A stretch of 64,000 nucleotides of DNA, taken from an uncultured virus (IMG/VR IMGVR_UViG_3300009376_000004) (taxonomy: Duplodnaviria; Heunggongvirae; Uroviricota; Caudoviricetes). Positions 8,870 through 58,774 of the stretch are shown here, one piece after another (within the stretch, counting starts at the first letter, position 1; the number at the start of each line of letters is the position of its first letter). The translations under genes and the position numbers were made by a program. The stretch is from the IMG/VR virus record IMGVR_UViG_3300009376_000004, one strand, 5' to 3'. The notes under the pieces were generated by a model, which saw nothing but the letters and a program-made list of their open reading frames with translations, did no database searches and had not been told where the DNA came from.

Positions 8870-11868
8870 TGTCCTCGAAAACGTTTGACAAGTTTCTCGA
8901 TCAACAGATTAAAATCCTAAAATCAAAGGCTAGTGAAACCGAAGATGTGATGGGATTACTTGTAGGTGAACCTCAAACATCACAAGGTGGTAAAAAGATT
9001 AAAGGCACATTGGCATATGCAGGTGTTTCATTGAATAATAGATTGTATCTTCCTGAAGAATTAAAAAAGGGAGATGGTATGACAGTTCCGTTAATTCTGA
9101 ATCATGCTTCAACAGCTGGTGCAGAGGAAGAATTAGATAGACTTCCACAAGAATTTAGAACTGGATTAGAACAAGGCAAAGAGATGCGAGTAGGAGAGGT
9201 TTCATTACAATGGGACGCAGAAAATTTAACACTTTACTATACAGGTGAAGTTGTAGATCAATTTTTCCAAAGGGAAGTAGATGATGCTCATATGGCAGTA
9301 TCATTGGGAATGTATTATGATTCTGATAGCCCACAAGTTTGTGATGAATCATGCTATACTGTAATAAAGGGTGCAGAGTTTCACGAAGTATCTTTAGTTT
9401 ATCATCCCGGTTTTCCAATAGCAACCATAGAAGCCTATGAAGCATTACAAAGAAAAACAAGACTTGGAGAATCATTGGTAAAGGTAAAATTTAATGAGGG
9501 TATTACAGATAACTTAACATTTAGAAATTATAACGATCCATTAAGATGTAAGATTTGTGGGACACAATTTTTCAGTGAAGATCATCTAGCAAAGCATATG
9601 AAGAAAACAGGTCATAAAGAAGAGGAAAAACCAGAAAGAGAGATAACAAATGACTTGCCACCAAAGGAACAACCAGATAGATCATACTTTAGTCAAAGAG
9701 GAATGTCGGAATCTTTATTTGCAAAAGCAACTGAAGATTCACTAATTAAAATTGAAGATGACGAAGATGACGATACACAGGTAACTGTTTTAGATGAATG
9801 GAAGAATGAAACCCATCCCGATAAAAACGGAAAAACCGAAGGCATAAGAACAACAAAAGCAATCGAAATTAATGTAATGACCAATTATGAGGAAGATGAA
9901 ATGCGAAAAGGTTATTTTATTTGTAAGAGATGTGGTGGAACAATCCGAGATATACCCAAAGAAGAAACTGGTCAGGGTAAAGGGATGCTAGAATTACATC
10001 TAATTGGACATGATCGAGATGATAAGAATAAAAATGCAAGAGATGGTCATAGAGAAAGATATGACAATATGAAAAAATGGTGGGAGAAACCAATAGCAAG
10101 TGAAATTTATCAGCAAGGAGGACAAGACAAAAATGATTATGACTTTGGAGCAGATGAAAGGAAATATTATGAAAGACATTCTGGTAAAAAGTTTTCAGAA
10201 CTAACTGAAGAAGATTTAGATCTTATTGATGAGAAAGCTGGTAGTGGTGAAATCCCAACATTCGAGGAATCGTCTTTTGTGGATGAAGCATATGGAGAAG
10301 AATCAAAATCAAATGAAGATGTAACTTTTGGAGATATGGAAGAGTTTAATCAAATAGCTCGTATTGGATTTGGAACTGAATATAGTTCAACAGGGAATGG
10401 TAGTAAATTATTAAGAGATGCATTTAACTCATTAGGAAGTCAATACAATGCTAAATGGCGTATAAATGGTGGTGTGGGTCATGGGATTTTTAGTGAATCT
10501 TGTTCATTTTGGGTTGACAGAAAATATGCATCAAATCTTGTCTTAGAATTGAAAGCACTTGATGGTTCGGCTTGGGCAAAAGATGGGGTCGTAGATCGTT
10601 GGACACCGAAAGTTACTGGTGCACGCATCATAGGATATGTGAATGATTATGGGGAGAATAAAACAAAAGCAGTAGAGATGCCAGAATTAGTTATTTCAAG
10701 AAGGCAGGGAGAAAACATATTGGCAATATTACAGGAAGAATTAGAAGAATTGAGAGCAGAGGAACCTAAAGATTACAACGCGATAGGCAGGGTTAGATTA
10801 TTAATAATGAAAACAAGAAAAGAAATATATCCAGATCAAGATCCATATCTTACCATTGACCTAGATTATAAAAAATTAGAAGATCAAGAATCATTATGGA
10901 ATACAAAAAAGGAAAAGGAAGACGTACAAAGATATAGTCAATGGGGTTGGAGAGATCCACACGACCAAACAATTCATAATCCAGATGGATCTAGCAGTAG
11001 TGATCCTGTATATAATAGAACAGGTGCTATGAGGGATTCCAAATATCAGCATGATCATATTGAAGATAGCCAAACTGATAATTGGAGTAGAGGAGGTTAT
11101 GGTGATAGGAGAGAAGGTCAAATAATACACGCTTGGCAAATGTTCAGAAACCAATTAAAACCATTCAATCCAGATGATATGGAAAGAACATTTTCACTAT
11201 GGATTAACTTTGCACAGAATCAGGGAATTTCTTATGAGAAAGCAAACCAACTTTGGAAAGATCAAGATATAGAATCAATGAAAGGGAGTAGTTTGGGTGT
11301 GAAATCTTCAATGGGTTGGGAATCATCATGGAAACATTGTAAAAAATGTAATCAGATGAGGAAATTTAGTCAATCATATGATCATTCTACTGGAACAAGA
11401 GTTATTGACCATAAACCAGATGAACGGGGTGGATTATATAGAATCAATGATGGAGATCCACAACCACGCTATTTACAATATTGTGAAACTTGTGATATGC
11501 CAGATGAGGACGAAGTAACTAGAACAAGTCCGATTTTAATAACAGAAGTAATCTATTGCAATTATTGTAATAAAACATTCCCTGAAAATAATTGGCAGAA
11601 GAAAGAACAACATGAATTAGATGATCATGGTGGTAAGCAATCAAAATTATTTGAGGGTGTAGATGATATAATATCCCAAGTTAAAAAAGCACAGAAGAAA
11701 AGAAAGAGAGAAAAATCAACAGGTGATCAACTCATTGACGAATTAACAGGAGGTGGTAGTTTCTTTAAAGAAGATCCAAGACATATGCCAGATTGGATGA
11801 AAAATATAGATATGTCAAAGGCAAAAAAAATAACATTTGGAAAGAAGAAGTCTAAAAAGAAGCGGTAA
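8869..11868 (+). CDS. Prohead (maturation) protease fused to an ~800-aa modular acidic extension
   Basis: N-terminal IKG..GVSLNNRLY..EL, PLILNH (His), AVSLG (Ser) and FHEVSLVYHPG give the HK97/T4-type prohead protease pattern. C2H2 fingers and KAxE motifs follow. Confidence 0.85.
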   Translation: MSSKTFDKFLDQQIKILKSKASETEDVMGLLVGEPQTSQGGKKIKGTLAYAGVSLNNRLYLPEELKKGDGMTVPLILNHASTAGAEEELDRLPQEFRTGLEQGKEMRVGEVSLQWDAENLTLYYTGEVVDQFFQREVDDAHMAVSLGMYYDSDSPQVCDESCYTVIKGAEFHEVSLVYHPGFPIATIEAYEALQRKTRLGESLVKVKFNEGITDNLTFRNYNDPLRCKICGTQFFSEDHLAKHMKKTGHKEEEKPEREITNDLPPKEQPDRSYFSQRGMSESLFAKATEDSLIKIEDDEDDDTQVTVLDEWKNETHPDKNGKTEGIRTTKAIEINVMTNYEEDEMRKGYFICKRCGGTIRDIPKEETGQGKGMLELHLIGHDRDDKNKNARDGHRERYDNMKKWWEKPIASEIYQQGGQDKNDYDFGADERKYYERHSGKKFSELTEEDLDLIDEKAGSGEIPTFEESSFVDEAYGEESKSNEDVTFGDMEEFNQIARIGFGTEYSSTGNGSKLLRDAFNSLGSQYNAKWRINGGVGHGIFSESCSFWVDRKYASNLVLELKALDGSAWAKDGVVDRWTPKVTGARIIGYVNDYGENKTKAVEMPELVISRRQGENILAILQEELEELRAEEPKDYNAIGRVRLLIMKTRKEIYPDQDPYLTIDLDYKKLEDQESLWNTKKEKEDVQRYSQWGWRDPHDQTIHNPDGSSSSDPVYNRTGAMRDSKYQHDHIEDSQTDNWSRGGYGDRREGQIIHAWQMFRNQLKPFNPDDMERTFSLWINFAQNQGISYEKANQLWKDQDIESMKGSSLGVKSSMGWESSWKHCKKCNQMRKFSQSYDHSTGTRVIDHKPDERGGLYRINDGDPQPRYLQYCETCDMPDEDEVTRTSPILITEVIYCNYCNKTFPENNWQKKEQHELDDHGGKQSKLFEGVDDIISQVKKAQKKRKREKSTGDQLIDELTGGGSFFKEDPRHMPDWMKNIDMSKAKKITFGKKKSKKKR

Positions 11869-14800: not shown

Positions 14801-15278
14801 TGGTTGGATATTTAGACAGGCGAGAGGTAAAACATACACAATAGCAACCATGAAAAAACATATGCCAGAATTGATGAAAGTATATGAAAAATTATTTGGA
14901 GAGGAACATAAATGGGAGGAAGATCCACCTTTAACAAGATTAAAGCGGTCGGATCCAAAAGATGAAGATGACGAAGAAACGCTATCTTATTTCCCTCGAG
15001 ATGGATATGACGATAGTACCGAATCGGTTGGTATAGAGTATGATGTTCAATTCTTAGATTATAATAGAGATATCGTGCCTAAAGAAGAAGCAACACAGGT
15101 TATAAGGAAAGGTTATCAGAATAATGAGTTAATCATTTTTGAACATCTAGAAAAATCTGAAAATGCAGATGAAGTAGGCGGTCAGGTGGCAAAAAGTGAG
15201 ATAATTGGATCAGATACTGTGAAATATGGCAAACTTGACCCTAAAAAATACTTAAATGATATTTCATGGTCAAACTAA
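11874..15278 (+). CDS. Multidomain (polyvalent-like) head-associated protein: C2H2 finger, transglutaminase/papain-like Cys-His-Asp domain, HExxH zincin
   Basis: MPFKSKKQQRW N-terminus; EEDHPRDENNQKF; LCGAST..GHVFLQLDDGTIVDPSYGQ; LAHELTH..ETELLS. Confidence 0.65.
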   Translation: MPFKSKKQQRWYNATDQDFLDDKPSSHRQVENISFADEVEKKWFCNLCNMSFEDTPDVEQRKKRHEDFHKDESVGKAGARRRNWTFGKVDWDFKEDRNKTSMYEVKKKKEIKKEMLKEMIEEEKKADEVSKAPHNTWSCPVCNDVFDNQWQYHPLCEDCRLPDYYRKYGDKGAKYYEGGKDKIYPTLPEDSHVTVDLSEARRRDFGTEEFKEEDHPRDENNQKFVKKGGGSSSSDVSGKDAMLKALKEKPLKPKDIVDKFGDVSILEIEREGKIFYDDGTWKLVGHKYDSKIPAGVLEKDMVEKTKTALDLQDEISDKQKGRIENHFKRNKEAIEKSDYTDMLQDLVTDFSDMQEKIADKRDGCDYDSKTDTFGEYGEMLCGASTTAIWQEKIDLSSVSNIYHGVVNNKEGNHRRHPNFEKIGHVFLQLDDGTIVDPSYGQMYPPDVNINSDLRLRIISPDDPEHEKYLPEFRDYPFLNTTRRLTEDNNYGKDLPRSRVMSLGKSEADKKASKVRLNMNPKNVNLISGFSSDEERAKVKKGMSDECLCIYCTGTELSTETGTTDGAIKGWITRRAGGKGGIDGSDKLSPNEQEKPDIDPNEIQIIGDNDKRLEKMIDSMMKKEYNAYLKGKPLNDEARRIAYLDKKYDDVFSLQTSKVFHPRNATDLDSIFGANSILFPNDTSEDASGRYFSDVKKSDIAKLDPYQKALFNKMKRIHEAIESDDSIRKVGFPRSELTIETTRNYRLNLEKSYMYASAQKKERDVREFADRIGTEVITPLINSNVHLYYIQKDKTGEEDEKFFQERMSDRLDATYNELKYMNSKNIWTKELGRQMNLKLYAKKGHFKPSDFDLSDIESGDFHANAFWSRNGNSINIFDNHPRIPFRSPISQTLAHELTHSVYDARKHQADSDPAIKAQLDELTRIAENIDPKIVGKYLGSYAKGYVDIFRKEGRKGWGINLETELLSAITDKINPRYGWIFRQARGKTYTIATMKKHMPELMKVYEKLFGEEHKWEEDPPLTRLKRSDPKDEDDEETLSYFPRDGYDDSTESVGIEYDVQFLDYNRDIVPKEEATQVIRKGYQNNELIIFEHLEKSENADEVGGQVAKSEIIGSDTVKYGKLDPKKYLNDISWSN

Positions 15279-15279
15279 C

Positions 15280-17286
15280 ATGGGTAGGAAAGCAGATAAG
15301 GTTAAGGAATCCCTTAACGAAAACATCAAAGCTCAGTCACTACTGTATGAATTTCTAGACGCAAATCCGAAAGGAACTGGAACAGAAGCATTCAATTTTC
15401 TGACCAAGCGTAATATTGGAAATAGAACAGCAATCGAAACTATAAGAAAGTATGGACGGGAAGACGACACTACTACTAATAACACTATCATTCCACCGAC
15501 ACCAGATGTAGCATCTGTATTTACGGAGGATGGTAGATTAAAAAAAATAGAAACACCAAATACAGCATTAGAAGATGTATCACTACCACCAGCTAGTGAT
15601 ATACCAACCGAAAAAGACACCCCTTTAAATACTAATATAGTGAAAGAAGCGAACAATAAACAGTATATGACTAGCGAAAATCGAAAGAAAAAGCAAGTTG
15701 AAAACGAAGATACTGAAATGCCAAATGCAAAAACAGCACCAGTTCAAGCACCTGTGGAAGAATCACAAGCTGACGGTACTTATGCAGACGGCGGAAGTGG
15801 AAATTGTGATGAGAAAAGTCAAACTTGGAATCCGAACACACGACAGTGTGAACCAAAAGATTCAGGCACATTAGAACAGAAGCCACCAGCAACTGTTTCT
15901 AGTAATGTAGAATCAAACGTTCCAAATGCAGACATAGCATCAGAAAAAAGACGAGTTCAAGAATATTACAAGAAATTGGATAGACTTGAAGCAATGCGAA
16001 ATATGAAAGTAGCAGATGCAAGAATTTCTGCCAAAGAAAAATTCCTGAAAGAGAAACGTCTTGACAGGCTAATTCGAGAGGCAAAATCTGGAGTTCAAAG
16101 AAGAGCACCAGTTGTATCACGACCAGCTATGAAAATTGGAGAATCTGTAAAGAAAATTTCAGCAACAGAAGCTGAAGTAGCAGGACCAGTTTCATGGATG
16201 AAAAACGTGGCACAAGAAAAGAATGTATCACCTTCTTATGTTTGGCACGTTAATAAGCAAAGAATTTATGATCAAGCAGGAGAACGCTTTGTCAAAGACT
16301 TTGATGCTAACGAAAATGCAAAATACACTCCATTGACCGAAACACAGAAATCTGTGGCATCGGAAACAGTTTCAGGACCAGCTTCAAACGACTTTATGCG
16401 AATCATGTCGGAACAAGTATTAGTCTTACCAAACGGTAAAGTGGTAACACCAATTAGACAATTCTGTGAAACCAAAGTTCTAGCACCCGGAACCAAAGAA
16501 GCATTCTTCTATGACTTCGGAGCAGTGACCTTTAGTGCAGTAACAGAAGATGGATCCACACAGGTAGGAGAATCCGCAGTTTCTATAAGAAGCAGTGGAG
16601 GATCAGCAACACCTAGAGGAACAAAACTAACTATTGGTTACACACAACTGGAAGAAAGCCCAATAGATATTGTTTCTGCCGCAAACAGATCTTACGCACT
16701 AGAATCAGTAAATGACGAAAGTGTAGAAGTTCTATCACGTGCATTCAACGATGATGTTGGATCAGGTGGAGATGCGACTAACAGAAAGGATAAAGGTGGC
16801 GGTGTAAAGACAAACAGATGGGTAGATCATGCAGGATCACAAGTAACCGCAGATGCCTCTGGATTAGGAAACTTAACCTTTGCAGGTTTGGTTGCCGCAA
16901 AAGGAGTTATCGAGGACGAGGGACTTGACCCAAGTAACTTAGTTACATACACGACAGGAAAAGCAATAAGAGATTTGATATTCGATCCAGATTTGGATTC
17001 CTTCATATCATTCAGCAGACCAGCTATCATCACAGAAGCTACTGTTGAGAGAATTGCAGGAACAAACGTAGTTCGTTCATCAGCTCCAGCCGCAGGTACT
17101 CAAGCCAATTCATCTAGATCAACAATGTTCGTTCCGAATATTGCATTTGGATTAATTACAGGTAGAGATCTGACAATGGAAGCACAAAGAAGAAACGAAC
17201 TTCAAGTAGTATTCTTGACTGGAACACAAAGAATTGCAGGTTTTGTAAAGAACGTAGAAGCAACTTGTAGAATATCTCACTTGTAG
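15280..17286 (+). CDS. Major capsid protein (HK97 fold) with long N-terminal scaffold/propeptide
   Basis: The C-terminal ~306 aa (TPIRQFC, VTE, LEESPID, IAGTNVVRS) fit an HK97 MCP. Start moved to ATG 15280 (TATA-like CTTAAAT at 15251). Followed by a hairpin, T-tract and a head-tail adaptor gene. Confidence 0.85.
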   Translation: MGRKADKVKESLNENIKAQSLLYEFLDANPKGTGTEAFNFLTKRNIGNRTAIETIRKYGREDDTTTNNTIIPPTPDVASVFTEDGRLKKIETPNTALEDVSLPPASDIPTEKDTPLNTNIVKEANNKQYMTSENRKKKQVENEDTEMPNAKTAPVQAPVEESQADGTYADGGSGNCDEKSQTWNPNTRQCEPKDSGTLEQKPPATVSSNVESNVPNADIASEKRRVQEYYKKLDRLEAMRNMKVADARISAKEKFLKEKRLDRLIREAKSGVQRRAPVVSRPAMKIGESVKKISATEAEVAGPVSWMKNVAQEKNVSPSYVWHVNKQRIYDQAGERFVKDFDANENAKYTPLTETQKSVASETVSGPASNDFMRIMSEQVLVLPNGKVVTPIRQFCETKVLAPGTKEAFFYDFGAVTFSAVTEDGSTQVGESAVSIRSSGGSATPRGTKLTIGYTQLEESPIDIVSAANRSYALESVNDESVEVLSRAFNDDVGSGGDATNRKDKGGGVKTNRWVDHAGSQVTADASGLGNLTFAGLVAAKGVIEDEGLDPSNLVTYTTGKAIRDLIFDPDLDSFISFSRPAIITEATVERIAGTNVVRSSAPAAGTQANSSRSTMFVPNIAFGLITGRDLTMEAQRRNELQVVFLTGTQRIAGFVKNVEATCRISHL

Positions 17287-35591: not shown

Positions 35592-35594
35592 TAA

Positions 35595-43510: not shown

Positions 43511-43539
43511 ATATTTTATATTATAGTTATGATCATTAT

Positions 43540-44597: not shown

Positions 44598-44948
44598 ATG
44601 AAACGGATCGTTTATTCAACGAATTTAAACTTTACACATATGATATCTGATAGACCAGAATTGGTGGATAAGGCTTGTGCTATTCCACATACTCATACAA
44701 GTAGAATAAATGTTACTGTTCCTATATTTGACCATGAATTTTTGGATTTTAAATCAGTGAAAAAAGGTGTGGAAAACATAGTAGGAAAAATGAGAGGAAA
44801 AAATATAACCGATGATTTTGGGATTGAATCAACTGAAGAATTTGTAGAGTATATTGCAAAGGCAGTAAAAAAAGAATTGAATAGGGAGAAGGTAGATGTC
44901 TATATTCAAGAAACCGAAAAGTATGGTATGGAATATGTTAGCGATTAA
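44598..44948 (+). CDS. queD: 6-carboxytetrahydropterin synthase-like (QueD)
   Basis: F..H..C..PHTH, LDFK.VK, STEEF and V.IQET; first gene of the que cluster. Confidence 0.75.
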   Translation: MKRIVYSTNLNFTHMISDRPELVDKACAIPHTHTSRINVTVPIFDHEFLDFKSVKKGVENIVGKMRGKNITDDFGIESTEEFVEYIAKAVKKELNREKVDVYIQETEKYGMEYVSD

Positions 44949-46085: not shown

Positions 46086-46861
46086 CTTCAAAAATTGCGA
46101 TAGCATTTTCAGGTGGTTGGGATTCTATGATTACATATTTTTGGTTAAAACATAATGGGTACAAAGACGAAGATTTATTTCTCTATACATTAAGATATGG
46201 ACAACCATATGAAAAGGAAGAAATTAATGCAATAGAAATATTATCTGAAAAATATGGATTTAAGGTAAAACAATATAACATAAATCTTCTTGATGATATG
46301 AATAGTCCTGACATTGTTAATCCAGTAATACCTGCTAGAAATTTATTAATTGCATATCTTGGTGCATTTAATTGTGATACTATTGCATTTTCTGCTCCAT
46401 TTGGAGAACATAGATTCGCAGAACAGAAATGGAATACACAAGATGAAAATCCTATCGCTTATCAAAAAATGAGTGAGGCATTATCATTTTTAATGGGTAA
46501 AAAAATTACAGTTATGAATTTTGTAGGGCATAAGACGAAAAGTGAATGGTTATCATGGTTAATGGACGTAGGGGAATATGGTAATCCTTCTGATTGGGAA
46601 TTTATACTTAGAAATACTGTATCATGTTATCAGGATAATTATTGTGGTAAATGTCTAGCTTGTTTATTGAAGTGGTGTATGTTAAAGAATAATGATTTGT
46701 CTATTGATGATTATTTTGTTAATGGGTTTGATATAAAATCCGTTCCTATTCAAAAAGCTATAAATGGATTGGAAAAATTGAAAGATAAAATCAATCCCTC
46801 CGATATTCATTATAATAACTTCTTGGCTAGATATAGAGAATTACAAAGTGCTTTAACATAA
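46082..46861 (+). CDS. queC: 7-cyano-7-deazaguanine synthase
   Basis: PP-loop FSGGWDS, YGQ, IPARNL and TVSCY..CGKCLAC. Confidence 0.88.
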   Translation: MTSKIAIAFSGGWDSMITYFWLKHNGYKDEDLFLYTLRYGQPYEKEEINAIEILSEKYGFKVKQYNINLLDDMNSPDIVNPVIPARNLLIAYLGAFNCDTIAFSAPFGEHRFAEQKWNTQDENPIAYQKMSEALSFLMGKKITVMNFVGHKTKSEWLSWLMDVGEYGNPSDWEFILRNTVSCYQDNYCGKCLACLLKWCMLKNNDLSIDDYFVNGFDIKSVPIQKAINGLEKLKDKINPSDIHYNNFLARYRELQSALT

Positions 46862-48508: not shown

Positions 48509-49072
48509 ATGTCGGTAGAATCTAAACCGAAGGTAGGAAGACCTACTCTACAAGAAGAAGTAGCAATCAAAAGCCAATTAAAGTTCTACTTCGAGAATGG
48601 AGTGGGGGTAGAGGCAACAGCATCAACAACAGGACGTTCTACTGCTACTGTTTCAAAATACTTTCGCATATGGTCAGATGAGTTAAAAGAAGCTATGGTA
48701 AAAGATTTTGCTGATGAACAGCATGAATCAAAACGTAGAGCAATAGCAGGTATAGATAAACAAATACTTCAATTATACACTATTCAAGAACAGATAAATC
48801 AAAGAATACAAAAAATGGCGACGAATGAGGACGATAAAACAGTAGATTATGGTAGAGTTCCAGATTCTAAAATGCACTTTGGAATTAGAGATTCATTGGC
48901 ACATGGTATAGCAAGTCTTATTGATAAACGTGCTTCAATAGAGATGACAATGACAGTAAAGGATTCATTAGATAAGATGGTAAAAGAAGTTATGATTAAG
49001 AATAACTTAGTGGATGATTATTATGCCAAGTTGGGTAGAGAGGAAACTAAAGAGCTCACAGACAGCGGTTGA
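48509..49072 (+). CDS. terS: Terminase small subunit (probable)
   Basis: GRPT, N-terminal HTH (TATVSKY) and coiled coil, directly upstream of TerL. Start moved to 48509 on TATA spacing. Confidence 0.6.
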   Translation: MSVESKPKVGRPTLQEEVAIKSQLKFYFENGVGVEATASTTGRSTATVSKYFRIWSDELKEAMVKDFADEQHESKRRAIAGIDKQILQLYTIQEQINQRIQKMATNEDDKTVDYGRVPDSKMHFGIRDSLAHGIASLIDKRASIEMTMTVKDSLDKMVKEVMIKNNLVDDYYAKLGREETKELTDSG

Positions 49073-50834
49073 AAGAGCTTGGTTAGATGGTGTTGAAAAA
49101 TACAACATTCTTTCAAAGTCCTTACCAAAGTTATCTGCGAATAGATTAGATTGGATTGAACAGGCAAGACCTGTTGTAGATGGAAGACCTAGAAATTTTC
49201 TCGCATCACCAATGTGGGAAGATGTCTATCTAGACAATCATGGATTTATGATGATACTTGCAGGAAGACAGGTCTATAAATCAACATATTGCACAGATGA
49301 ATTATCTTGTATGGCTACTTCAAAGGCAGGTGTCCAAGCCTGTTATGTAACACATAGTATGTCATCTTTGACAACCTTTTCCACGCAGAGATTAAGGGTG
49401 GGAACATTCCTACAAAATGCGATATTAGCACAATTCCCTCGTAGAGATATTGGAAGTGTTGGAGAAATATCAATGAAGAACAACTCTACCATTTACATGA
49501 CAACTGATAACCATGAATATAGAAAGGTAGAGGGAAAATCACTAGACCTTACAATGTTAGACGAGGCACAGTATCATGCGATTGAACATTTGCCGAGAGT
49601 TAGAGAAGCCATGACATCTACAAAAGGAAAATTAAAAATATTGGGAATTGGTGGAGAGGCAGGTTCAGCTTATGAAAGATTATGGTCAGAAACTGACCAA
49701 AGGGAATGGGTTTATGATGATCCTTTATGGAGAGAGAAATTACAGTTTGATGAAAAGGGTTTGGTTATAGGAGAATATATGAAAAATGCGTTAAAGGGTA
49801 AATGGATTCCTCAAAAACCAGAAAATTATTTACATCATGGTTACCATATGCCACAAACAATATTTGCGATGATTCCAGTAACAATAGATGATGCCATAGA
49901 AAAATATCATGTAGATCCTGAATATTCATTAGAATGGAAAGAAAGACATTATAGTAATGCAGTTTGGAATATGCACGTTCTTGGATCATTCTACAAGGCA
50001 CAAAGACGACCTGTTACAAGGGAAATGGTATTTGCCTGTATGACACCTTACAGAAATATTGCACTAAATACACCAGAAGAAATAGCAGAATTAAAAGACA
50101 TATTTGGTAATCAAATAAGAGTTTCACTTGGCGTAGATTTTGGAAGTGGTCCATCTAACTCATTGACGGTTATATCAATAATGATACATTGGAAAAAATC
50201 TGATAGATATCATTTAGCATTTATTGAAAGACGACCAGCTGAACATCAACTAGATCAAGCCAAATACATAACGGAAGTATTCAAAAGAGCAAAATGTGAC
50301 ATAGGAGTAGGCGATTTGGGTTATGGACAGATACAGGTAAAGGTAATTCAAGATGGTGGTGCTGATAGAACAACAGGGGAAGTTTTTTCAGGCGTTGGCA
50401 ATACAATGTTTATCGGTTGTAAATCAATAGGTAATGAAACAAAACCTGTAATGAAATATGACATAAAGGTGGATGAACATGGAGAAGAAGCAGGAAGATT
50501 TACGATAGATAAGGCTACTGCTATACAAGGATTTATTGATCTATTAGAGGTCTATCGCAAACACCCAAAATATTCATCAGGTAAAAATCAGGTTCCAAAA
50601 CTTATGATTCCATATCATAAAGATAAGGAATGGGAAACAGATTGGTTAGTTAATGATTTTACAGATATTACTAGAAAGGATTTGGTGGAGGCATCTGAAG
50701 AAGCAGATCATCTAGTAGATAGACGACAAAGGGCAAGAAAAGAATTTAATCATCCAAAAGATAGCACAATGTCAGTTATATATGCAAAATTAGGAATTGA
50801 ACAAGAACGTGAATGGTCTTGGGTTAGTGCATAA
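49023..50834 (+). CDS. terL: Terminase large subunit (GpA-like ATPase plus RNase H nuclease)
   Basis: AGRQVYKST Walker A variant, MLDEAQ Walker B, LGVDFG nuclease Asp and HPKD..MS.IYA. Confidence 0.85.
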   Translation: MPSWVERKLKSSQTAVERAWLDGVEKYNILSKSLPKLSANRLDWIEQARPVVDGRPRNFLASPMWEDVYLDNHGFMMILAGRQVYKSTYCTDELSCMATSKAGVQACYVTHSMSSLTTFSTQRLRVGTFLQNAILAQFPRRDIGSVGEISMKNNSTIYMTTDNHEYRKVEGKSLDLTMLDEAQYHAIEHLPRVREAMTSTKGKLKILGIGGEAGSAYERLWSETDQREWVYDDPLWREKLQFDEKGLVIGEYMKNALKGKWIPQKPENYLHHGYHMPQTIFAMIPVTIDDAIEKYHVDPEYSLEWKERHYSNAVWNMHVLGSFYKAQRRPVTREMVFACMTPYRNIALNTPEEIAELKDIFGNQIRVSLGVDFGSGPSNSLTVISIMIHWKKSDRYHLAFIERRPAEHQLDQAKYITEVFKRAKCDIGVGDLGYGQIQVKVIQDGGADRTTGEVFSGVGNTMFIGCKSIGNETKPVMKYDIKVDEHGEEAGRFTIDKATAIQGFIDLLEVYRKHPKYSSGKNQVPKLMIPYHKDKEWETDWLVNDFTDITRKDLVEASEEADHLVDRRQRARKEFNHPKDSTMSVIYAKLGIEQEREWSWVSA

Positions 50835-50869: not shown

Positions 50870-51271
50870 ATGAATGTAGCTATTTTAGGAGTTAGGGGAT
50901 CCAAAATGAACGATTATGAATGTCAAAAGGCACAGCAAAAAATCATTGAGATATCTAAGGCATATGATAATCTGAAACTGATGACGATGAAAAGTCCTAA
51001 CGGTGGGATAAACACATTGGTCGAGATTTATGCTAATACGATGGATATTCCTTTAGAGATATTAGATTATGGTGATAATATGGACACTTGGAGGAAGAAT
51101 TGTGTGAGAATAGCCGATAGGTGTGATCACTTTCATTGTATAACCACTTTACCAAAAGGAAAAAAATCATGCCATCACTGTCTAGATTATACCCATGAGA
51201 ATACAGGTGGTTGTAATGTAATGAAGTGGGCGAAGTCATTTGGAAAGCCTACTGATCTAACTATACTTTAA
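50870..51271 (+). CDS. SLOG/YspA-like Rossmannoid protein
   Basis: VAILGVR, GGINTLVEIYA, RIADRCD and GG...AK..GKP. Confidence 0.5.
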   Translation: MNVAILGVRGSKMNDYECQKAQQKIIEISKAYDNLKLMTMKSPNGGINTLVEIYANTMDIPLEILDYGDNMDTWRKNCVRIADRCDHFHCITTLPKGKKSCHHCLDYTHENTGGCNVMKWAKSFGKPTDLTIL

Positions 51272-51304: not shown

Positions 51305-51763
51305 ATGACAATAAGCCCAGCAGATGAGTTTTACGGAGGAATCCTAAACGGATTAGGTGAGTTTAACTCAACCCAATTTAAGACTTCAATCAGTGAAAGT
51401 TGGAATGGAAAATCTAATAGTCAGCGATATACAATAGCAAAAGAATCGGGACTATCTGATAATGATGCTAGGGCAATTCACAGACAATCTTTTGAGAATA
51501 TTAGTGGTTTTCTAAGGGAAAAAATAGAACAGTTTGCGTTGTTTGAATCTTTTAAAAATACAAGTATGACCGATGTTAATTCGGACTTTAAGAAAGGAGT
51601 AAAAAATAGTGCAGATGTTTATGATCCAAATGCAGATAGAAAAGATGGAAAGCGAAGTTCTATTGATTCTATTCCAACAGCAGATGACGATGAAAATTAT
51701 AATAAATTAATTGGCTATAATCCAAAACCAAACGCCATGTTCTCAACAGATAGTGAAGATTAA
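51305..51763 (+). CDS. Acidic protein with one WNxxSxxQR helical module
   Basis: First gene of the second polyprotein operon; TATA-like CTTATAA 30 nt upstream. Confidence 0.6.
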   Translation: MTISPADEFYGGILNGLGEFNSTQFKTSISESWNGKSNSQRYTIAKESGLSDNDARAIHRQSFENISGFLREKIEQFALFESFKNTSMTDVNSDFKKGVKNSADVYDPNADRKDGKRSSIDSIPTADDDENYNKLIGYNPKPNAMFSTDSED

Positions 51764-53346
51764 TGACTACGATCTGGACTAATAATAAATCAAAAGCAAT
51801 AGAGGCTTATAGTGATCCTGAATGTAATGTTTGTGGTGCTGTAATTCATAACTCATTTGAACAGAATGATGATAGAGAAGCAATAGAAAATGCAATTTAT
51901 CAACATTATACAAATAATCATTCCGATGAAAGCAATCTTTCACAACTTATAGAACAACAAATCTATGACCAATTTGCAAAAACAAAGCGTACTCTCTACC
52001 ATAAATCACAATTTACAAAAAGAGGAGAAATGCTTGTTGATATTGCTAGAGGTGGAAACTCTGATGGAATGAAAATAGCAGGAGTGGCAGATTTGTTAGA
52101 AGAAATAGATCCAGATGTTATTGGAAATACACCTGATGCTAATAGATTAGCAAAAGCAATAGAAGATACTACTATTAATCCAGAAGAAACAGCAGTTGAT
52201 CGTGCAGGTCAGTTAATGCGAGATCAGAAAGCAACATCAAATTTTTGGGAAGATTCACAAAAGTCTAAAGTTCCACAGGGACAAGGACATAAGTGGCAAA
52301 GACATGGAGAAGCAGATTTTCCAGCTAATAGATATGGTGAGATAAAAAATGAGGATGACATTCAACAACTATTTGAAGATTGGAAGGAACACGTTATTGA
52401 TGTTAATGATAAGTTTTCATGGATAGACTTTGCAGATGGTGATGGTTATACAGAAGAACAAGCTGAAAAATTGTGGAATAATGTTCAAAAGTTTGGTTTT
52501 GGAGAAGGAAGATGGTCAGGTGCAACTGATGACGAATTACAAGATGCACTGACGATGCCAAGCACACTTGATTATAAAAGACGAATAGATGATAGACCAA
52601 AGGATTCCCATATTACTGTTGATCTTTCAGATAAAAAATCACATGACCAATTAGACGATGAATTTTGGAAAGGTATTAGAGAAAGTAAAGCAAGTGAAGT
52701 AAAAGAAGAATTTAGTGAAGATGCTTATTTATCATTAATTAATGATTCATATGAAGTTCCAATGGAATTTCATGGCAGATTTTATAATAGTGCAGAAGAA
52801 TGGAAAGACCATGATCCTATTGCATTTAGGGAAGATTACCTTAATTGGATTGATGGTAATGAGAAAGATGGAATTGATACAGGACATGATGATTACCATA
52901 ACCAATCATCATCAGATGATCAATTTAAAGGGCAAAGTACAGAGGACTTTGATTCTTATAATTTAGGTAATCCAAAAGATGACTTGGAAAAACCAACGAG
53001 TGCCGATCAAAGAATTGCCGATACACAGGAATCAGGTCAAGTAGATACAGATCCTCATTGGAAATCAGGTAGGTTCCGAAGAGGAGGTAGTTGGGCAGAT
53101 AAAAAAGAAGAATGGCAAAAATCACAAGGAGAAGCAAAAGAAGTCATAGATGACACCGAGAAAGATGAAATTTTCCAATATCTATTTGAATTACAATCTA
53201 GTGGAAAAACAAATATGTTCGGATCTATTCCGTGGGTTCAAGGAGAATTTCCTCACTTGGATGTGAAAGAAGTTAAGGCAGTAGTTATGGAATGGATGCA
53301 GAATTATCAAGAAATACACGATAGAATGGGAATTGACTTTATATGA
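51763..53346 (+). CDS. Acidic modular polyprotein (C2H2, helical modules, C-terminal SGKTNMFG domain)
   Basis: KSKAIE, LAKAIE and ESKASE motifs; shares segments with the 6734 and 11874 ORFs. Confidence 0.7.
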   Translation: MTTIWTNNKSKAIEAYSDPECNVCGAVIHNSFEQNDDREAIENAIYQHYTNNHSDESNLSQLIEQQIYDQFAKTKRTLYHKSQFTKRGEMLVDIARGGNSDGMKIAGVADLLEEIDPDVIGNTPDANRLAKAIEDTTINPEETAVDRAGQLMRDQKATSNFWEDSQKSKVPQGQGHKWQRHGEADFPANRYGEIKNEDDIQQLFEDWKEHVIDVNDKFSWIDFADGDGYTEEQAEKLWNNVQKFGFGEGRWSGATDDELQDALTMPSTLDYKRRIDDRPKDSHITVDLSDKKSHDQLDDEFWKGIRESKASEVKEEFSEDAYLSLINDSYEVPMEFHGRFYNSAEEWKDHDPIAFREDYLNWIDGNEKDGIDTGHDDYHNQSSSDDQFKGQSTEDFDSYNLGNPKDDLEKPTSADQRIADTQESGQVDTDPHWKSGRFRRGGSWADKKEEWQKSQGEAKEVIDDTEKDEIFQYLFELQSSGKTNMFGSIPWVQGEFPHLDVKEVKAVVMEWMQNYQEIHDRMGIDFI

Positions 53347-55649
53347 CCACTATCTGGTCAAACGATGATTACGGTAAAGAATATACTCCTAAAGTAAAAG
53401 CAAATGAAGTAATGGATGCTGAAGTAGAAACATGGTATAATTCATTATCTTCACATGACCAAGATAAACTTATGAAAGATTATACAGGAACTGCTGGACA
53501 AGATGGAAAAATGCATTATTCAGATGCAAAAAGTGAATTTAGTGAATTAGACGTAGATGCACAACATCACATTCATGATGTATTCCATAATAGACTTCAA
53601 GTTAATCAGGGTGCATCACAAAAAGATGATTGGGGTTATACATTAGATGATAGGTGGTGGGGAGAATCCAGAGGAGATGTATTCAAATGTCCAAGATGTT
53701 CTTTCAAAACATCTGACGATGATAAATGGCAACATCACATGGAAGAGCATGATGAAGCCGATATCCTGTATAAAGAAGCAGAATTAGAGTTTGCAAATTA
53801 TACAGATAAGGATTATGAAAGATTAGGACTTAAATGGAATGATGATCATAGTGAGTTAGTCAATCTTGATGGATCACAACCTAAGAATCCGATGCATGAA
53901 GTTCATGGATCAAGTGTAAATGGATATGATGCTAAAGAGTTTAAGAATTTTTGTTTAGCTTGTGCAGGTAGAGGATTCATGTTCCCAACAGGAATGAGAT
54001 GTCCTAATTGTAAAGGCACAGGAATTTATGATAGTGAAAGAGAGTATGAGGATCCAAAACCATCTGTTTCAAGAGCACCTGATGATAAACCATATTCACC
54101 ATTATCAGATCAAGAACCTAGAACAGCAAGTGGAAATAGATTATACGAGGCGGTATGTGAAGATTGTATGGGATCTGGAACAAAATCAGTTTATAATAAA
54201 CATAGAGTTCGTGCAGGGGATGATGGATCATTCAGGGCAGGACATTTTAAAGCAGATTATCAATTTCCTTGTAAAAAATGTGCAGGTGGTGGCTATGTTA
54301 AAAAAGAAGATCAACCAACAAATATTTTAGATACTGAACCAGAATGGCGTATTGCAAACAAACGTCATTCCGATGTTAAAGAAGGTAGACCAAAAGATAA
54401 AAGACAAACACAAATTTTCAATGCACCACCAGAAAACTTAGCAAGAATAGGAAATCTAAAACAAGAGGGCGATCCTGATTGGACAACTACACCTGATCCA
54501 TCTGGACACACTTGGAATGAATTTGGTCAGAAAGAAAAAACATCTCGCAGTAATTACACACAATATCACGATAGACCAAGAGCAAAGGCAGAACAAGATG
54601 CCAATAGAGGAGATATAGAACATGATTCACTTGAAGATCCGTTGTCATGGTATAGCAGTGAGGATATTATGCCATTATCAGAATTAAAAGAAGCATCAAC
54701 TGAAATACAAGATATTTATCCAACAGATCCAGTAGGAGATGACCTTAGAGATAATCCAAATCTTAGTGATTATCATTATAATATGGATGCTAGTCAAATG
54801 TATGACCTATATGTAGATACAATGAAAAAACATCTTGGAGATTATACAAGAAATGCAACGCCAGAAAAACTGCAACGAGCAAAAGAATTGTTAGATGGAT
54901 GGTCACAGAATACAATGATTTTCGATATGCCAAATTCTAAGAGAAATTCGCCAGAAGGTATAAAGGAATTTACACACGCCAAACATTTCGTACAAATGTG
55001 GTTAGATAGTTGGATTCAGACTGTAAGTGGCACAATGCCAGATCCATCATGGGAATCAAAAGCAAGTGAAGCTTCGGTAGAAGAAATTGTGGATATATTA
55101 GATGAGGAAAATGCTAGATGGCAAAGAGGAGTTGATACAGCACCATTTGTTGCTTATGATTTTTTATTTGCTAATATGAGAATAGATAGACAGTCAGCAG
55201 TTCAAGCTGTAATACAATGGTGGGCGTTAAGACAAAATGAAATAATTACAGAGGATGACATATTTCAAGGATTTGATGATCCAGATGAACTTGATTATCA
55301 AGCTGGGGGAGATTCGGCAACAGGTCTTGGAGAAACAGTTAGACAAATGACAGGGCATACAGGAGAAGCTCACAAACATGAATGGGTTTCAGGAACACCA
55401 GCTGGTTCAATAGCGACAGATAAGGATGACGATTGGTGTGAGATATGTGGAGTATCGAGAGATGAAGTTGATGAAGTAAAATATGGTGATGATGTAAGAA
55501 CATATCTTGAAAAATTAAAAGATTCTGATAAAAAAGAAGATAAGAAAGAAAGTGAGGAAGATTTATCAATAGACCTTAAACCTAAAACCGAAGATGATAT
55601 TAGTCATGCTAACAAAGACCATTTACTTTTGGAACAGTTTAGGGGATAA
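53343..55649 (+). CDS. Acidic modular polyprotein (C2H2, DnaJ-type CxxCxGxG fingers)
   Basis: KVKANE and ESKASE; same MTTIW N-terminus as the upstream gene. Confidence 0.7.
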   Translation: MTTIWSNDDYGKEYTPKVKANEVMDAEVETWYNSLSSHDQDKLMKDYTGTAGQDGKMHYSDAKSEFSELDVDAQHHIHDVFHNRLQVNQGASQKDDWGYTLDDRWWGESRGDVFKCPRCSFKTSDDDKWQHHMEEHDEADILYKEAELEFANYTDKDYERLGLKWNDDHSELVNLDGSQPKNPMHEVHGSSVNGYDAKEFKNFCLACAGRGFMFPTGMRCPNCKGTGIYDSEREYEDPKPSVSRAPDDKPYSPLSDQEPRTASGNRLYEAVCEDCMGSGTKSVYNKHRVRAGDDGSFRAGHFKADYQFPCKKCAGGGYVKKEDQPTNILDTEPEWRIANKRHSDVKEGRPKDKRQTQIFNAPPENLARIGNLKQEGDPDWTTTPDPSGHTWNEFGQKEKTSRSNYTQYHDRPRAKAEQDANRGDIEHDSLEDPLSWYSSEDIMPLSELKEASTEIQDIYPTDPVGDDLRDNPNLSDYHYNMDASQMYDLYVDTMKKHLGDYTRNATPEKLQRAKELLDGWSQNTMIFDMPNSKRNSPEGIKEFTHAKHFVQMWLDSWIQTVSGTMPDPSWESKASEASVEEIVDILDEENARWQRGVDTAPFVAYDFLFANMRIDRQSAVQAVIQWWALRQNEIITEDDIFQGFDDPDELDYQAGGDSATGLGETVRQMTGHTGEAHKHEWVSGTPAGSIATDKDDDWCEICGVSRDEVDEVKYGDDVRTYLEKLKDSDKKEDKKESEEDLSIDLKPKTEDDISHANKDHLLLEQFRG

Positions 55650-57310
55650 AAATGTCCGATATTGATGAGGCTTTTGGAGAACAATATACAACAGCAGGTC
55701 ATGATCAATTAGATCCACCTAGGAATCCAGAAGCAAAAGAAGCTACATTCAAGAATCAAGATGATGGTGGTCTAACCATTGATGGTAAAAAAGTATTAAA
55801 AATGTGGGAATCATTTAGTGGTTGGTATTGGTATGGAATAGAAGATACAGGAAGTTATGAATATACTGATGCAAGTGGTAATACGCAAACAGCTCATTCA
55901 TGGTTTGGTTTTGTTCAGGGCTTTGCAGAAGAATGGGGATCGTTTGACGAGAATGAATTAAATTCAATGGAAGGTAAAGTATGGGAAGTTCCAAGAGAAA
56001 ATTGGCACTTTTCAGGTAGAAGAAATACATATGAAGCAGAACATGACGGAACAGTATGGTCGGACTTTCATCAAAAATGGATAGACGAAGATGAATTAAA
56101 AAAAGATAGAAAGGCGAGAGGCTTTAGTTCAGAATCAGAAGCAGATGAGGATTGGTGGAATGGTCTAAGTCCAGCAGAACGTGTAGAGATTAATAAGAAA
56201 CATGGAATACTGAATTGGGATGATGTAGATCCTAAAGATAATCCAATGGGTCATACAGGAAAAGGAGATTATTCTGTAAATATATCGTCAAGAAGATATG
56301 AAGCACAAAGACCAGAAGCACAAGACACAATAACATCTTGGTATAAGGAAATACATGGAGTAGAATCAAAAGCAGGTGAAGGCTATGATTGGGATCTTCC
56401 TGAAAACCCTACTAAAAGACAGATTAAAAAAGCAATTAAAGAATTACGGATGTTTATTCATTACGCAAGTATGGAGAATCCAATGCACATGGGAGAATTT
56501 AGGGAAGAATTGGCAGAATTGGAAGCAAAATTAGCAAGTGCAAATGAATACCTACCAGATCACTTTGAATTAGATGAAGATAGGGTAAATGATATTATGG
56601 ATGATAAGGCACAAGATGATTTAGTTATTTGTAGGTATTGTAGTAAAAAGTTTGACTTGGAAGAATACGGACATGAAGATTTAAACAAACATCTTTTAGA
56701 GGTACATAATATTCTTAATAAAGGAGAATCAAAAGCAAATGAAGCTGTATGCCCACATTGTAAAGGCACAGGTTTAGCTAGACAAGATCAAGATGTTCAT
56801 ATACCTATGAAGTCGGATTGGGATGAATGTAGATGGTGTAACGGAACAGGAGAAATTTCAACAGAATCAAAAGCAAGTGAAGATTGGCAACAGCATTTGC
56901 CAAAAGGTATGACAATAAGAGGTTATGAATGTCCTATCTGTTTCATGTCTATCAAATTTGAAAAGGAATTTGGTGGAACGGGGAAAAATCTATACAATCA
57001 CTTGTTAGAAAAACATGGTGTAGATGATTCTGAAGCAAAAGATATGGTACAAACAGCAAAGTCAAACGTTGAAGATTATGAAAAAGTATTCAAAGATTAT
57101 GAATCGCCTTACACAGAATCAAAAGCAAATGAATATCTTCTTGACAAAGTATGTCCTAAATGTGGTAGTGAGATAGGGGACGCAGAGGACGAGTTTGAAA
57201 ATTCCTATTCTATAACCTGTCCTTTATGTAAGGAAACCATTAATCGTGATGATTATGATTTTACTGCTTCGCCTGAATGGAAATTAGAGGGGGAATCAAA
57301 AGCAAATGAA
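55053..57310 (+). repeat. Dispersed in-frame 18-nt repeat GAATCAAAAGCARRTGAA (ESKAxE)
   Basis: Copies at 55053, 56363, 56726, 56864, 57116 and 57293; a synonymous variant at 52681. Confidence 0.9.
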
Positions 57311-58774
57311 GCATATCCAGATGCAGTTTGGGAAGAATGGTGGAATACAGATCAAACAGAAAAATCAGATTGGTTGAATTTTGCATTTGATAAAGGTATT
57401 TCGGATGAGATAGCCGAAGGAGCATGGGAACATTATATGGGAACTGAAGCAGATAGTAAATCTAATCAGAATATTAAAAATCTAAAACTTCGTAATCAAA
57501 AAAGACAATGGGGAAGACGAGGTGAAGCACTTCAAGATACAGAATATCCTAACCCAAAATATCATGGTAAATCACTAGAAGAATTATTAAAAATTAAAGA
57601 TGAGTATTTTGGAGATGTTGGTAACTTAGATTTAGGAGATGATCCAGATATGTCAGATTATCACGATCTCATGTGGGAGATAGGTGTCTTACAAGGACTA
57701 TATGGTCATGCTCATAAAACAGATGAAGGTCTAGGCGATTTTTTTAAAAAACTTTCAGGTAGAGGAGATAAAACTTGGGGTAGTGATCCTATAACTCATG
57801 GGGACTTTGAAGTAATGTGGAATAATGCAGGTGTTCAGCAAAGAATAAAATGGTTAGAAGATGTTCAGGGTAGTGCTGACGGATTACAAAATGAAGCATA
57901 TGATAAATTGCCACAATGGATTCAGGTACAGTTATTTTATCATATAGGAGATCTTGATAAACATGAGGATTTACTTGAAACACCAACCATTAGTCTTGAA
58001 TCATATGACTATTATTATCCAAAGAAAAATAAACCAAGAACGAAATACAGTGTTAATAAAGCCCATAAAATTCGTAAGGGAACAGGCGAATTAACAAAAG
58101 ATAATTTATTGAAACATATAAAGTCCGAAGGTACTTATGATCCAGAATCAAATAATAATTATAATACTTCTTCATCAATAAGAAATAAAACAGATCAATA
58201 TCTACAAGAGTTAGAAAGTGAGGGTTGGATTGAACAGAAGATGCAGAGTAACAAATTGGTTTGGGTTCCTACTAGACATGGTAGTGGTAGGGTAGGAACA
58301 GTAGAAGCATGGGAACCAGAAGATAGAGGTGGAAATAATCCGGGTATGACGAATGAGATGATGTTAGAATATGCAAAACATATTTGGGACGTTGATGAAA
58401 GTTCAAAAGAACAAAGGATAAAACTTTTGGAGGATTTGGGTAATGCAGGTATAGGAAAAACTCTTGTTATGCTTTCCATGATGGACTTTAATTCACTAGG
58501 ACAAAAAATTCAACAAGATTTGGCAAATGCTTTGGAAATGGATTTAGCGATGGATGAAAGAGATTTTGCTAAGAAAATTCAGGGTATAGAGGGCGGAAAT
58601 GGATCAGGTAAGAGATATCATCAACAATGGATGAATGATGCAGACAAGATTGATTCGATAAAGTCCGAAGATATGACAAAAGATAAATTTCTGAAAAGAG
58701 CAAAGGCAATCGAGATAGAATATACTGACGAAGATCAATATAGGCGAATGTTTGAGCAGTTAAAAGATGATTAA
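55652..58774 (+). CDS. Acidic modular polyprotein (DUF2958-like, Zn fingers, helical modules, wHTH-like)
   Basis: Five exact ESKA[G/N/S]E motifs plus variants, each bracketing one small domain. Confidence 0.75.
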   Translation: MSDIDEAFGEQYTTAGHDQLDPPRNPEAKEATFKNQDDGGLTIDGKKVLKMWESFSGWYWYGIEDTGSYEYTDASGNTQTAHSWFGFVQGFAEEWGSFDENELNSMEGKVWEVPRENWHFSGRRNTYEAEHDGTVWSDFHQKWIDEDELKKDRKARGFSSESEADEDWWNGLSPAERVEINKKHGILNWDDVDPKDNPMGHTGKGDYSVNISSRRYEAQRPEAQDTITSWYKEIHGVESKAGEGYDWDLPENPTKRQIKKAIKELRMFIHYASMENPMHMGEFREELAELEAKLASANEYLPDHFELDEDRVNDIMDDKAQDDLVICRYCSKKFDLEEYGHEDLNKHLLEVHNILNKGESKANEAVCPHCKGTGLARQDQDVHIPMKSDWDECRWCNGTGEISTESKASEDWQQHLPKGMTIRGYECPICFMSIKFEKEFGGTGKNLYNHLLEKHGVDDSEAKDMVQTAKSNVEDYEKVFKDYESPYTESKANEYLLDKVCPKCGSEIGDAEDEFENSYSITCPLCKETINRDDYDFTASPEWKLEGESKANEAYPDAVWEEWWNTDQTEKSDWLNFAFDKGISDEIAEGAWEHYMGTEADSKSNQNIKNLKLRNQKRQWGRRGEALQDTEYPNPKYHGKSLEELLKIKDEYFGDVGNLDLGDDPDMSDYHDLMWEIGVLQGLYGHAHKTDEGLGDFFKKLSGRGDKTWGSDPITHGDFEVMWNNAGVQQRIKWLEDVQGSADGLQNEAYDKLPQWIQVQLFYHIGDLDKHEDLLETPTISLESYDYYYPKKNKPRTKYSVNKAHKIRKGTGELTKDNLLKHIKSEGTYDPESNNNYNTSSSIRNKTDQYLQELESEGWIEQKMQSNKLVWVPTRHGSGRVGTVEAWEPEDRGGNNPGMTNEMMLEYAKHIWDVDESSKEQRIKLLEDLGNAGIGKTLVMLSMMDFNSLGQKIQQDLANALEMDLAMDERDFAKKIQGIEGGNGSGKRYHQQWMNDADKIDSIKSEDMTKDKFLKRAKAIEIEYTDEDQYRRMFEQLKDD

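Follow-up and report, generated by a model that had tools for sequence, protein, structure and literature searches.

Nearly invariant ESKAxE separators join small modules in putative polyproteins of an uncultured marine tailed virus

A stretch of 64,000 nucleotides (nt) from an uncultured virus (IMG/VR record IMGVR_UViG_3300009376_000004), hereafter referred to as the window, contains at positions 51305–58774 a block of genes whose products carry repeated copies of a short motif, ESKAxE. A sequence-only reading of the window had suggested that these genes encode polyproteins which are packaged in the prohead and cut at the motif by a viral protease. The GC content of the window is ~33%, and its real-looking open reading frames (ORFs, designated here by start position) of at least 100 amino acids (aa) are all on the plus strand. 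ORF 55652 (55652..58774, 1040 aa) contains five ESKAxE separators: ESKAGE at 56363, ESKANE at 56726, ESKASE at 56864, and ESKANE at 57116 and again at 57293. Degenerate copies are present at 55730 (EAKE), 56132 (ESEADE) and 56534 (ASANE), and a RAKAIE is found near the C-terminus at 58697. The first module of this ORF (module 1, 55742..56035, ~aa 31–128) is kin to free-standing proteins of ~95 aa and provides a DUF2958-like lead. A CxxCxGxG zinc module (Pfam DnaJ_CXXCXGXG, 1.1e-5) occupies, together with the next separator, positions 56744..56881, and a zinc-ribbon module that is missing from some relatives occupies, also with the next separator, 57134..57310. Upstream lie ORF 53343 (53343..55649, 768 aa), with KVKANE at 53391 and ESKASE at 55053, and ORF 51763 (51763..53346, 527 aa), with KSKAIE at 51787, LAKAIE at 52147 and ESKASE at 52681. 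Both products begin with MTTIW, and their N-terminal segments, MTTIW...KVKANE and MTTIW...KSKAIE, have the appearance of propeptides. The conserved first gene of the block, ORF 51305 (51305..51763, 152 aa), contains no KAxE; its C-terminus is common to the first gene of G001, a complete relative from IMG/VR (77,876 bp, with terminal repeats) that has most genes in common with the window in the same order.

Related motifs are found between the portal and capsid protein genes. ORF 6734 (6734..8869, 711 aa), located between the portal gene and the protease, consists of zinc-finger modules with KAIE or KAYE separators (three KAIE and one KAYE) at 7187, 7520, 7706 and 8033. ORF 8869 (8869..11868, 999 aa) carries a KSKASE at a putative propeptide site (8920), a protease domain and an 800-aa tail of modules with separators AKATE (9718), TKAIE (9850), ESKSNE (10300) and TKAVE (10660). 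ORF 11874 (11874–15278, 1134 aa), between the protease and the capsid protein, contains a HELTH motif, a weak metallopeptidase-toxin match (E 0.018) and a single KAxE (KKADE). The N-terminal 29 residues of this protein are found again at the beginning of ORFs located 3′ of the polyproteins in two metagenome loci, L019 and L020. All motifs listed by the sequence-only reading in ORFs 55652, 51763, 53343, 6734, 8869 and 11874 are present, and at the positions given there. The degenerate copies ESKSNE, ESEADE and KSKAIE are one or two bases off the consensus.

The KAxE motif was counted over 55 ORFs of the window (18,921 aa) and significance was assessed with 2000 shuffles per ORF. Nineteen of the 25 copies found are located in ORFs 6734, 8869, 51763, 53343 and 55652 (4,045 aa, 4.70 per 1000 aa), while the remaining 50 ORFs (14,876 aa) account for six, or 0.40 per 1000 aa. 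The observed counts were matched in 0, 1, 2, 54 and 0 of the 2000 shuffles for ORFs 6734, 8869, 51763, 53343 and 55652, respectively. ESKAxE occurs seven times in the window, and the count of five in ORF 55652 was reached in none of the shuffles. No KAxE is present in the 1300-aa ORF 304 or in the 1137-aa ORF 21854. The count in ORF 11874 was met by 773 of the 2000 shuffles, and this ORF was therefore left outside the motif-rich set. Thus, the earlier view that the motif is confined to a few large ORFs holds for five of them but not for ORF 11874, and the ~16 kb of polyprotein that it had estimated is reduced to ~12 kb. In several family members, and in the window in ORFs 51763 and 53343, ORF 8869 and the portal protein, the first KAxE lies 11–24 residues from the N-terminus, a placement resembling that of the short targeting propeptides of T4 internal proteins. 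The portal motif, KAFE at residues 5–8, is common to the window and G001.

A search for relatives of ORF 55652 identified 18 homologs with 2–13 KAxE each, nearly all of them ESKA[SNT]E. Thirteen more distant homologs have only one or two modules in common with ORF 55652, yet contain 3–13 KAxE each. With one homolog, P0011, as a query, eight metagenome loci were retrieved, in which adjacent genes contain, in order, 4, 13, 8 and 4 KAxE (L021), 4, 9, 10 and 1 (L014), or 10 and 4 (L019). In these metagenomic relatives a single protein has up to 13 ESKAxE, and four adjacent genes of one locus together have 29 KAxE. A logo was built from 130 sites chosen by the pattern KAxE, so that K, A and E are fixed by the search; it shows Glu at P6 in 98 sites, Ser at P5 in 94, and Ser, Asn, Thr or Ile at P2 in 119, with unconserved flanks rich in Gly, Ser and Thr. 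The median distance between these sites is 87 aa. An exact 18-mer scan of IMG/VR returned six contigs, of which G001 alone is a clear family member, and IMG/VR scans with ORF 55652 and with homolog P0008 revealed no relatives.

Comparison of homologous genomes revealed gain and loss of modules at the motif, as the sequence-only reading had anticipated. Three homologs, P0002–P0004, are collinear with ORF 55652 and 67–95% identical to it where aligned. Four modules of ORF 55652 are missing among them. Three are a WW-helical unit, the CxxCxGxG finger and the zinc ribbon, and their deletions span exactly from separator to separator. The fourth, a Trp-rich unit absent from two of the homologs, is removed by a deletion that begins at a separator and ends past the module. 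The CxxCxGxG module (56744..56881) is missing, separator to separator, from P0002 and P0003 and from a contig of sequencing run X6, and the zinc-ribbon module (57134..57310) from P0002 and from contigs of runs X6 and X17. At the nucleotide level one X6 contig skips from 56725 to 56864 (138 nt, with 13 letters common to both sides) and from 57114 to 57292 (177 nt), and X17 has the same 177-nt skip; neither run belongs to the study that provided the best holder of the region. Many further contigs match just the ~20-nt separator and diverge on either side.

Module 1 of ORF 55652 has 48 free-standing homologs of 84–120 aa (P0275–P0322). They represent a widespread family of ~95-aa proteins with a consensus MAKFE..LYIDGKKVLKGWESFSGWYWF...SGRR, kin to module 1 and possibly to DUF2958. 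A Pfam scan of 12 proteins for DUF2958 gave a single match (P0318, E 0.0015, 19.3 bits), below the cutoff of 21. Among the atlas neighbours 20–49% of members carry DUF2958. Relative to the start of the free-standing proteins, the KAxE ahead of an embedded module 1 has its Glu at position 0 or −1 in 14 of 19 copies. In the remaining five the same place is taken by [A/S/V]-x-E, the PEAKE|ATFK of the window among them. The next KAxE ends 4–6 residues past the module in 13 of the 19. The start of a free-standing protein thus coincides with a predicted cut, and the proposal that the modules are self-contained is borne out for module 1. We conclude that modules are autonomous and are gained and lost at the separator.

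In six of the seven ESKAxE copies of the window the residues E, S, K and A are encoded by GAA, TCA, AAA and GCA, although codon usage predicts all five fixed codons, the closing GAA included, with a probability of ~0.10 per copy. Seventy-six unique separator copies were compiled from seven metagenome loci, G001 and the window. Of these, 75 have GAA, 73 TCA, 76 AAA and 75 GCA, and the closing GAA is present in 71. In the P2 codon the second position shows free variation (G in 45, A in 21, C in 5 and T in 5), and no signal is detected in the flanks. ESKAxE therefore corresponds to a fixed 18-nt junction, GAATCAAAAGCA-AxT-GAA. As a control, eight genes of the window were paired with their G001 orthologs and the codons at conserved Glu, Ser, Lys and Ala residues were analyzed: the same codons were used at 0.85, 0.38, 0.71 and 0.66 of positions, respectively, and Ser codons were identical in just 29% of conserved Ser columns. 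Against this control, the separator is conserved as DNA beyond what the peptide or codon preference accounts for, and the same control rules out codon optimality at conserved residues as the source of the fixed codons. The separator would thus be a DNA-level cassette junction as well. Most simply, modules would be moved by recombination between separators, which would also keep the junctions alike; a direct role of the separator at the RNA or DNA level may also exist.

The 12-mer was found 72 times, always on the coding strand and in the ESKA frame, with no copy on the reverse strand or between genes. A pairing small RNA is unsupported, no antisense copy of the separator being found, and a sumoylation-type K-x-E consensus was rejected by inspection as K-A-x-E does not fit it. 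Non-ESKAxE sites in ORF 6734, ORF 8869 and the capsid protein are written in ordinary, varied codons, which points to selection at the peptide level. The sequence-only reading had argued for such selection from different codons in the copy at 52681. That copy does use AGT for Ser but is the exception, the other six of seven having the same four codons; selection on the peptide, suggested by the non-ES sites, is thus a partial account, the ESKAxE copies being nearly invariant as DNA.

The earlier reading had also placed a capsid protease in ORF 8869. At E ≤ 0.001 the candidate domain (8968..9468, aa ~34–200) has 137 homologs. Of 48 aligned sequences, every one retains Ser145 and at least 90% retain His79; these two residues presumably form the catalytic pair. 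The model of the domain has a predicted local distance difference test (pLDDT) score of 84, with a mean of at least 94 in each ten-residue block of residues 41–180. In VIA comparisons it matched the varicella-zoster virus protease (1vzv) with Z 9.5 and T4 gp21 (5jbl) with Z 9.4 (root-mean-square deviation 2.6 over 120 residues), compared to Z ≤ 4.4 for unrelated folds. The top Foldseek matches are herpesvirus proteases, from 5.7e-4 (1o6e). By sequence, the domain matched no Pfam peptidase family (S77, S78 and S21 included) at E up to 5 and no entry of PHROGs; its 25 distant homologs contained no peptidase family, and no Protein Data Bank (PDB) match was found by sequence or profile. The fold, the conserved His and the invariant Ser, together with the location of the gene between those of the portal and the capsid protein (portal 4554, 6734, 8869, 11874, capsid protein 15256), indicate that, judging by the model, the N-terminus of ORF 8869 is a capsid maturation protease of the assemblin / T4 gp21 type.

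Fusions in other genomes connect this domain with head proteins and with the separator. In G001 a single 916-aa ORF (L006:1554-4304; G001 41554-44304) encodes a C2H2 finger, the protease, a scaffold-like region and, at the end, the capsid protein. Compared to this fusion the window has ~2000 aa of extra modules, which split it into ORFs 8869, 11874 and 15256. Two distant protease homologs, P0246 and P0227, are fused to Phage_capsid domains. Among the matches listed, 14 of 75 protease-domain homologs have ESKAxE in the same polypeptide. Many homologs have a KAxE ~18 residues ahead of the domain, as does the window with its KSKASE, and KAKA[SN]E often follows it. In the model, KSKASE closes a helix (residues 3–21) and is followed by the least confident stretch (24–33).

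ORF 15256 (15256..17286) combines a scaffold-like N-terminal region with an HK97-type major capsid protein. When the sequence was compared directly with Pfam, PHROGs and the PDB, no match was obtained for the capsid domain. Using hhalign, its family profile was aligned to residues 203–466 of P0246 (probability 98.4, E 7e-15), a segment that matches Phage_capsid_4 (1.4e-7), and its atlas neighbours are phage major capsid clusters (0.97). We examined 121 capsid homologs and left out two without a core anchor. In all 119 that remained, [A/G/S]-x-E is present 8–14 residues ahead of the conserved core with the Glu in a single alignment column; P3 is Gly in 62, Ala in 54 and Ser in three. The junction reads VASE in the window (predicted site 16354–16365) and KKASE in G001. 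The VASE that had been noticed ahead of the capsid fold is thus one instance of a conserved motif, which is presumably cut during maturation.

Further genes of the window were also recognized. The gene for the terminase large subunit (49014..50834; phrog_675, 1.2e-31) is located directly 5′ of the polyprotein block, with a small Cys/His-rich protein (50870–51271) encoded in between and conserved directly 5′ of the block; in G001 the homologue of the latter is the final gene ahead of the terminal repeat of the assembly. The portal protein (4554..6482) was recognized by weak SPP1_portal and phrog_64 matches. ORF 304 (304–4206), 5′ of the portal gene, has a counterpart in G001 that is a portion of a 3176-aa ORF (28599–38129). 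A head-tail connector (Phage_connect_1) fused to an IPT/TIG domain is encoded at 17388–18041, and RadA of the archaeal/eukaryotic type at 28926 (Rad51, 8.4e-69). A Cas4-like nuclease and a RusA-like protein are also encoded. At 35595–39347 the gene for an AAA_5 ATPase precedes that for an 825-aa VWA protein, which bears a zinc ribbon at its N-terminus; this CobS/CobT-like pair is common to the window and G001. Positions 44598–46861 contain preQ0-type genes (PTPS/QueD-like, radical-SAM QueE-like, GTP cyclohydrolase I and QueC), and further downstream, to 48481, a 255-aa ORF and a ParB-N protein are encoded. This 7-deazaguanine gene set probably reflects modification of viral DNA. Rfam and tRNA scans of the window gave no match.

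No close known phage was found, the terminase being only ~23% identical to those of Bacillus phages, and a RadA query against reference genomes returned no relative. The best holders of the region among sequencing runs are marine metagenomes, with no RNA run among the holders listed, and a 95%-identical capsid protein is present on a contig filed under a metagenome-assembled genome titled 'archaeon'. The window is a portion of the genome of a marine tailed virus, probably with an archaeal host, the grounds for the host being the RadA/Rad51-type gene and this one close relative binned as archaeal.

We infer a mechanism that combines cleavage, packaging and recombination. The five large ORFs would encode beads-on-a-string polyproteins, in which autonomous small modules of a median of ~87 aa, many of them zinc fingers and almost all acidic, are joined by (E-S)-K-A-x-E. 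The separator would be the recognition site of the capsid maturation protease at the N-terminus of ORF 8869, which would use its His/Ser pair and cut after the Glu of the separator; the same cut would be made at the [A/G/S]-x-E between scaffold and capsid protein, at the protease's own flanks and behind the short N-terminal propeptides. Capsid proteases of the assemblin/gp21 fold act inside procapsids. For this reason, and since relatives have modules joined in one chain with the protease, or with protease, scaffold and capsid protein together, the polyproteins would most likely be loaded into the procapsid and there cut into many small products. Modules are deleted, inserted and exchanged at the 18-nt junction, most simply by recombination between repeats, so that the module set differs between close strains.

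We consider cutting of the separator by the virus's own head protease, the core of this mechanism, to be reasonably probable. If it occurs, two fates of the products appear about equally likely, and each by itself is put forward tentatively: the products may be ejected as mini-proteins that act in the host, or they may serve as filler, either scaffold-like or for charge balance, which would be fragmented and then lost or retained. A more elaborate version is doubtful. It would have an in-gene cassette system, in which one 18-nt element serves as both recombination junction and protease site, and would allow each strain to build, reshuffle and exchange its own collection of small proteins, numbering dozens and including zinc fingers and DUF2958-like units; these would be loaded into the capsid as a few polyproteins, cut by the head protease and delivered with the DNA for takeover or disarming of the host.

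Several observations weigh against cleavage and delivery as described. The first group concerns the protease. Its domain has no Pfam peptidase or PDB sequence kinship, gp21 and gp245 included, and specificity for Glu is for this reason not readable from kinship. Herpesvirus assemblins, which provide its best fold matches, cut after Ala, unlike the Glu site proposed here. Other points concern the polyproteins. The predicted cleavage products are nearly all acidic (pI 4.1–5.9), unlike the internal proteins of T4, which are basic; acidic products fit neither DNA-condensing internal proteins nor any known effector class. The structure predicted for ORF 55652 from 11 aligned sequences (mean pLDDT 40) is too poor to tell whether the separators are linkers: each of the five lies in a stretch below 50, but 52% of the modelled region is also below 50, and two separators are modelled as low-confidence helices. 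Local alignments end within 6 residues of a site in 35% of cases versus 10% for random positions, an enrichment that is partly circular because the motif itself is conserved. The block at 51305–58774 adjoins the terminase and a RusA-like gene, outside the portal-to-capsid module, and in G001 it is syntenic but placed differently relative to the terminase; its association with the head thus rests on the motif and on fusions in other genomes. Finally, the near-invariant codons reflect a constraint that the peptide alone fails to explain, and the primary role of the separator could be at the DNA level.

The last point is the basis of an alternative in which the 18-nt repeat is a recombination site, used through microhomology or by a dedicated recombinase in the manner of integron cassettes or a shufflon, and ESKAxE is a harmless hydrophilic linker that is never cut. 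The codon counts in the 76 copies, when compared with the ortholog control, agree with it, as do insertions and deletions that run exactly from repeat to repeat with 13 common letters at the junction, the many contigs that match the ~20-nt junction alone and diverge on both sides, and the presence of RadA, the Cas4-like nuclease and the RusA-like protein. However, K-A-x-E recurs in other codons at the capsid junction, around the protease and between the modules of ORFs 6734 and 8869, which would be an unlikely coincidence for an arbitrary linker. Furthermore, neither frame nor strand varies among the 72 copies, and no recombinase gene is tied to the block. We regard this explanation as unlikely.

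Two other alternatives retain the peptide as the functional unit. In one, cleavage at KAxE takes place in the cytoplasm and is carried out by a host protease, by the HExxH protein of ORF 11874 or, ahead of assembly, by the viral protease; the modules then work inside the infected cell without being packaged or injected. This would fit the position of the block outside the portal-to-capsid module and beside terminase and recombination genes, the occurrence of free-standing module-1 homologs as ordinary small genes, and the HELTH motif of ORF 11874 with its weak metallopeptidase match. It is at odds with the identity of the motif to the sites in the capsid protein and at the protease flanks, with the fusion of ESKAxE modules to the protease in 14 of the 75 homologs listed, and with the action of capsid proteases of this fold within procapsids, and appears to us rather improbable. 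In the other, the proteins stay whole and ESKAxE is a linear motif between domains, for docking to the capsid interior or to a host factor or for Lys modification. Six residues are conserved, compared to the three that known phage head proteases need according to the SPN3US report (PMC10052503), and cleavage of the polyproteins is itself deduced. Intact proteins would leave unexplained, however, the motif at the scaffold/capsid junction, around the protease and 11–24 residues from N-termini, as well as the fact that embedded modules start right after the motif, where their free-standing homologs start. This explanation we consider very improbable. Cutting by the head protease thus remains the preferred reading.

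The closest known systems are those of phiKZ and SPN3US (gp175 and gp245) and of T4 (gp21). These proteases belong to the same fold class and cut at a small-x-Glu site (A-x-E in SPN3US); capsid protein, portal, protease and packaged ejection proteins are their substrates, and short N-terminal propeptides are removed. The SPN3US report describes cutting by gp245 after A-x-E in the capsid protein, the portal, gp245 itself and ejection proteins, with long propeptides cut at several sites (PMC10052503). In contrast to these systems, the separator described here has six residues, is nearly invariant, is found up to 13 times per protein and is fixed at the nucleotide level, and the pieces between cuts would be folded-looking autonomous modules instead of a discarded propeptide and one mature protein. 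The virus also differs from them in its much smaller genome (78 kb in the complete relative) and its probably archaeal host, and no sequence kinship of its protease to gp21 or gp245 was detected.

More distant parallels exist. Herpesvirus assemblins (pUL26-type) resemble the protease not only in fold but also in being fused to a scaffold and released by cutting at their own flanks; they are not known to carry cargo modules. African swine fever virus polyproteins pp220 and pp62 are cut at Gly-Gly-X and those of poxviruses at A-G-X. These too are structural polyproteins of double-stranded DNA viruses cut at a short repeated motif during particle maturation, but they belong to another realm, depend on another protease class and yield few fixed products instead of a variable set of small modules. 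In polymorphic toxin loci (CdiA with VENN, Rhs with PxxxxDPxGL) a conserved junction motif likewise marks the site of module swaps and its DNA serves as recombination homology; MuF-toxin fusions of temperate phages are proposed capsid-packaged cargo. Such loci have one variable C-terminal toxin and a cognate immunity gene, whereas here many modules stand in series, and the likeness is confined to the conserved junction, with no toxin family recognized among the five ORFs in Pfam and PHROGs scans; immunity genes were not searched for.

No occurrence of the strings 'ESKASE' or 'ESKANE' was found in the literature, and searches on prohead proteases, polyproteins, archaeal viruses, cargo proteins and DUF2958, mostly at the level of abstracts, returned no description of this arrangement. 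The sequence-only reading likewise knew of no description in archaeal viruses. For three features no precedent was found: the number of autonomous modules in each chain, a separator of six invariant residues, and the constancy of its nucleotide sequence.

Of all areas of tailed-virus biology, the least explored is that of proteins carried in the virion and set free in the host, and the known cases are separate gene products that are trimmed once. In the virus family described here, each genome appears to specify tens of small proteins, strung into a small number of chains that are punctuated by one fixed site. If this is true, a simple sequence rule would allow such small viral proteins, many of which also occur as orphan free-standing genes, to be found and delimited in metagenomes, and the separator could serve as a protease-specific linker in engineering. 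The system would also represent natural domain shuffling at a defined nucleotide junction, with strain-level presence and absence of modules in independent samples, and would reveal a polyprotein strategy in a tailed double-stranded DNA virus, likely of marine archaea.

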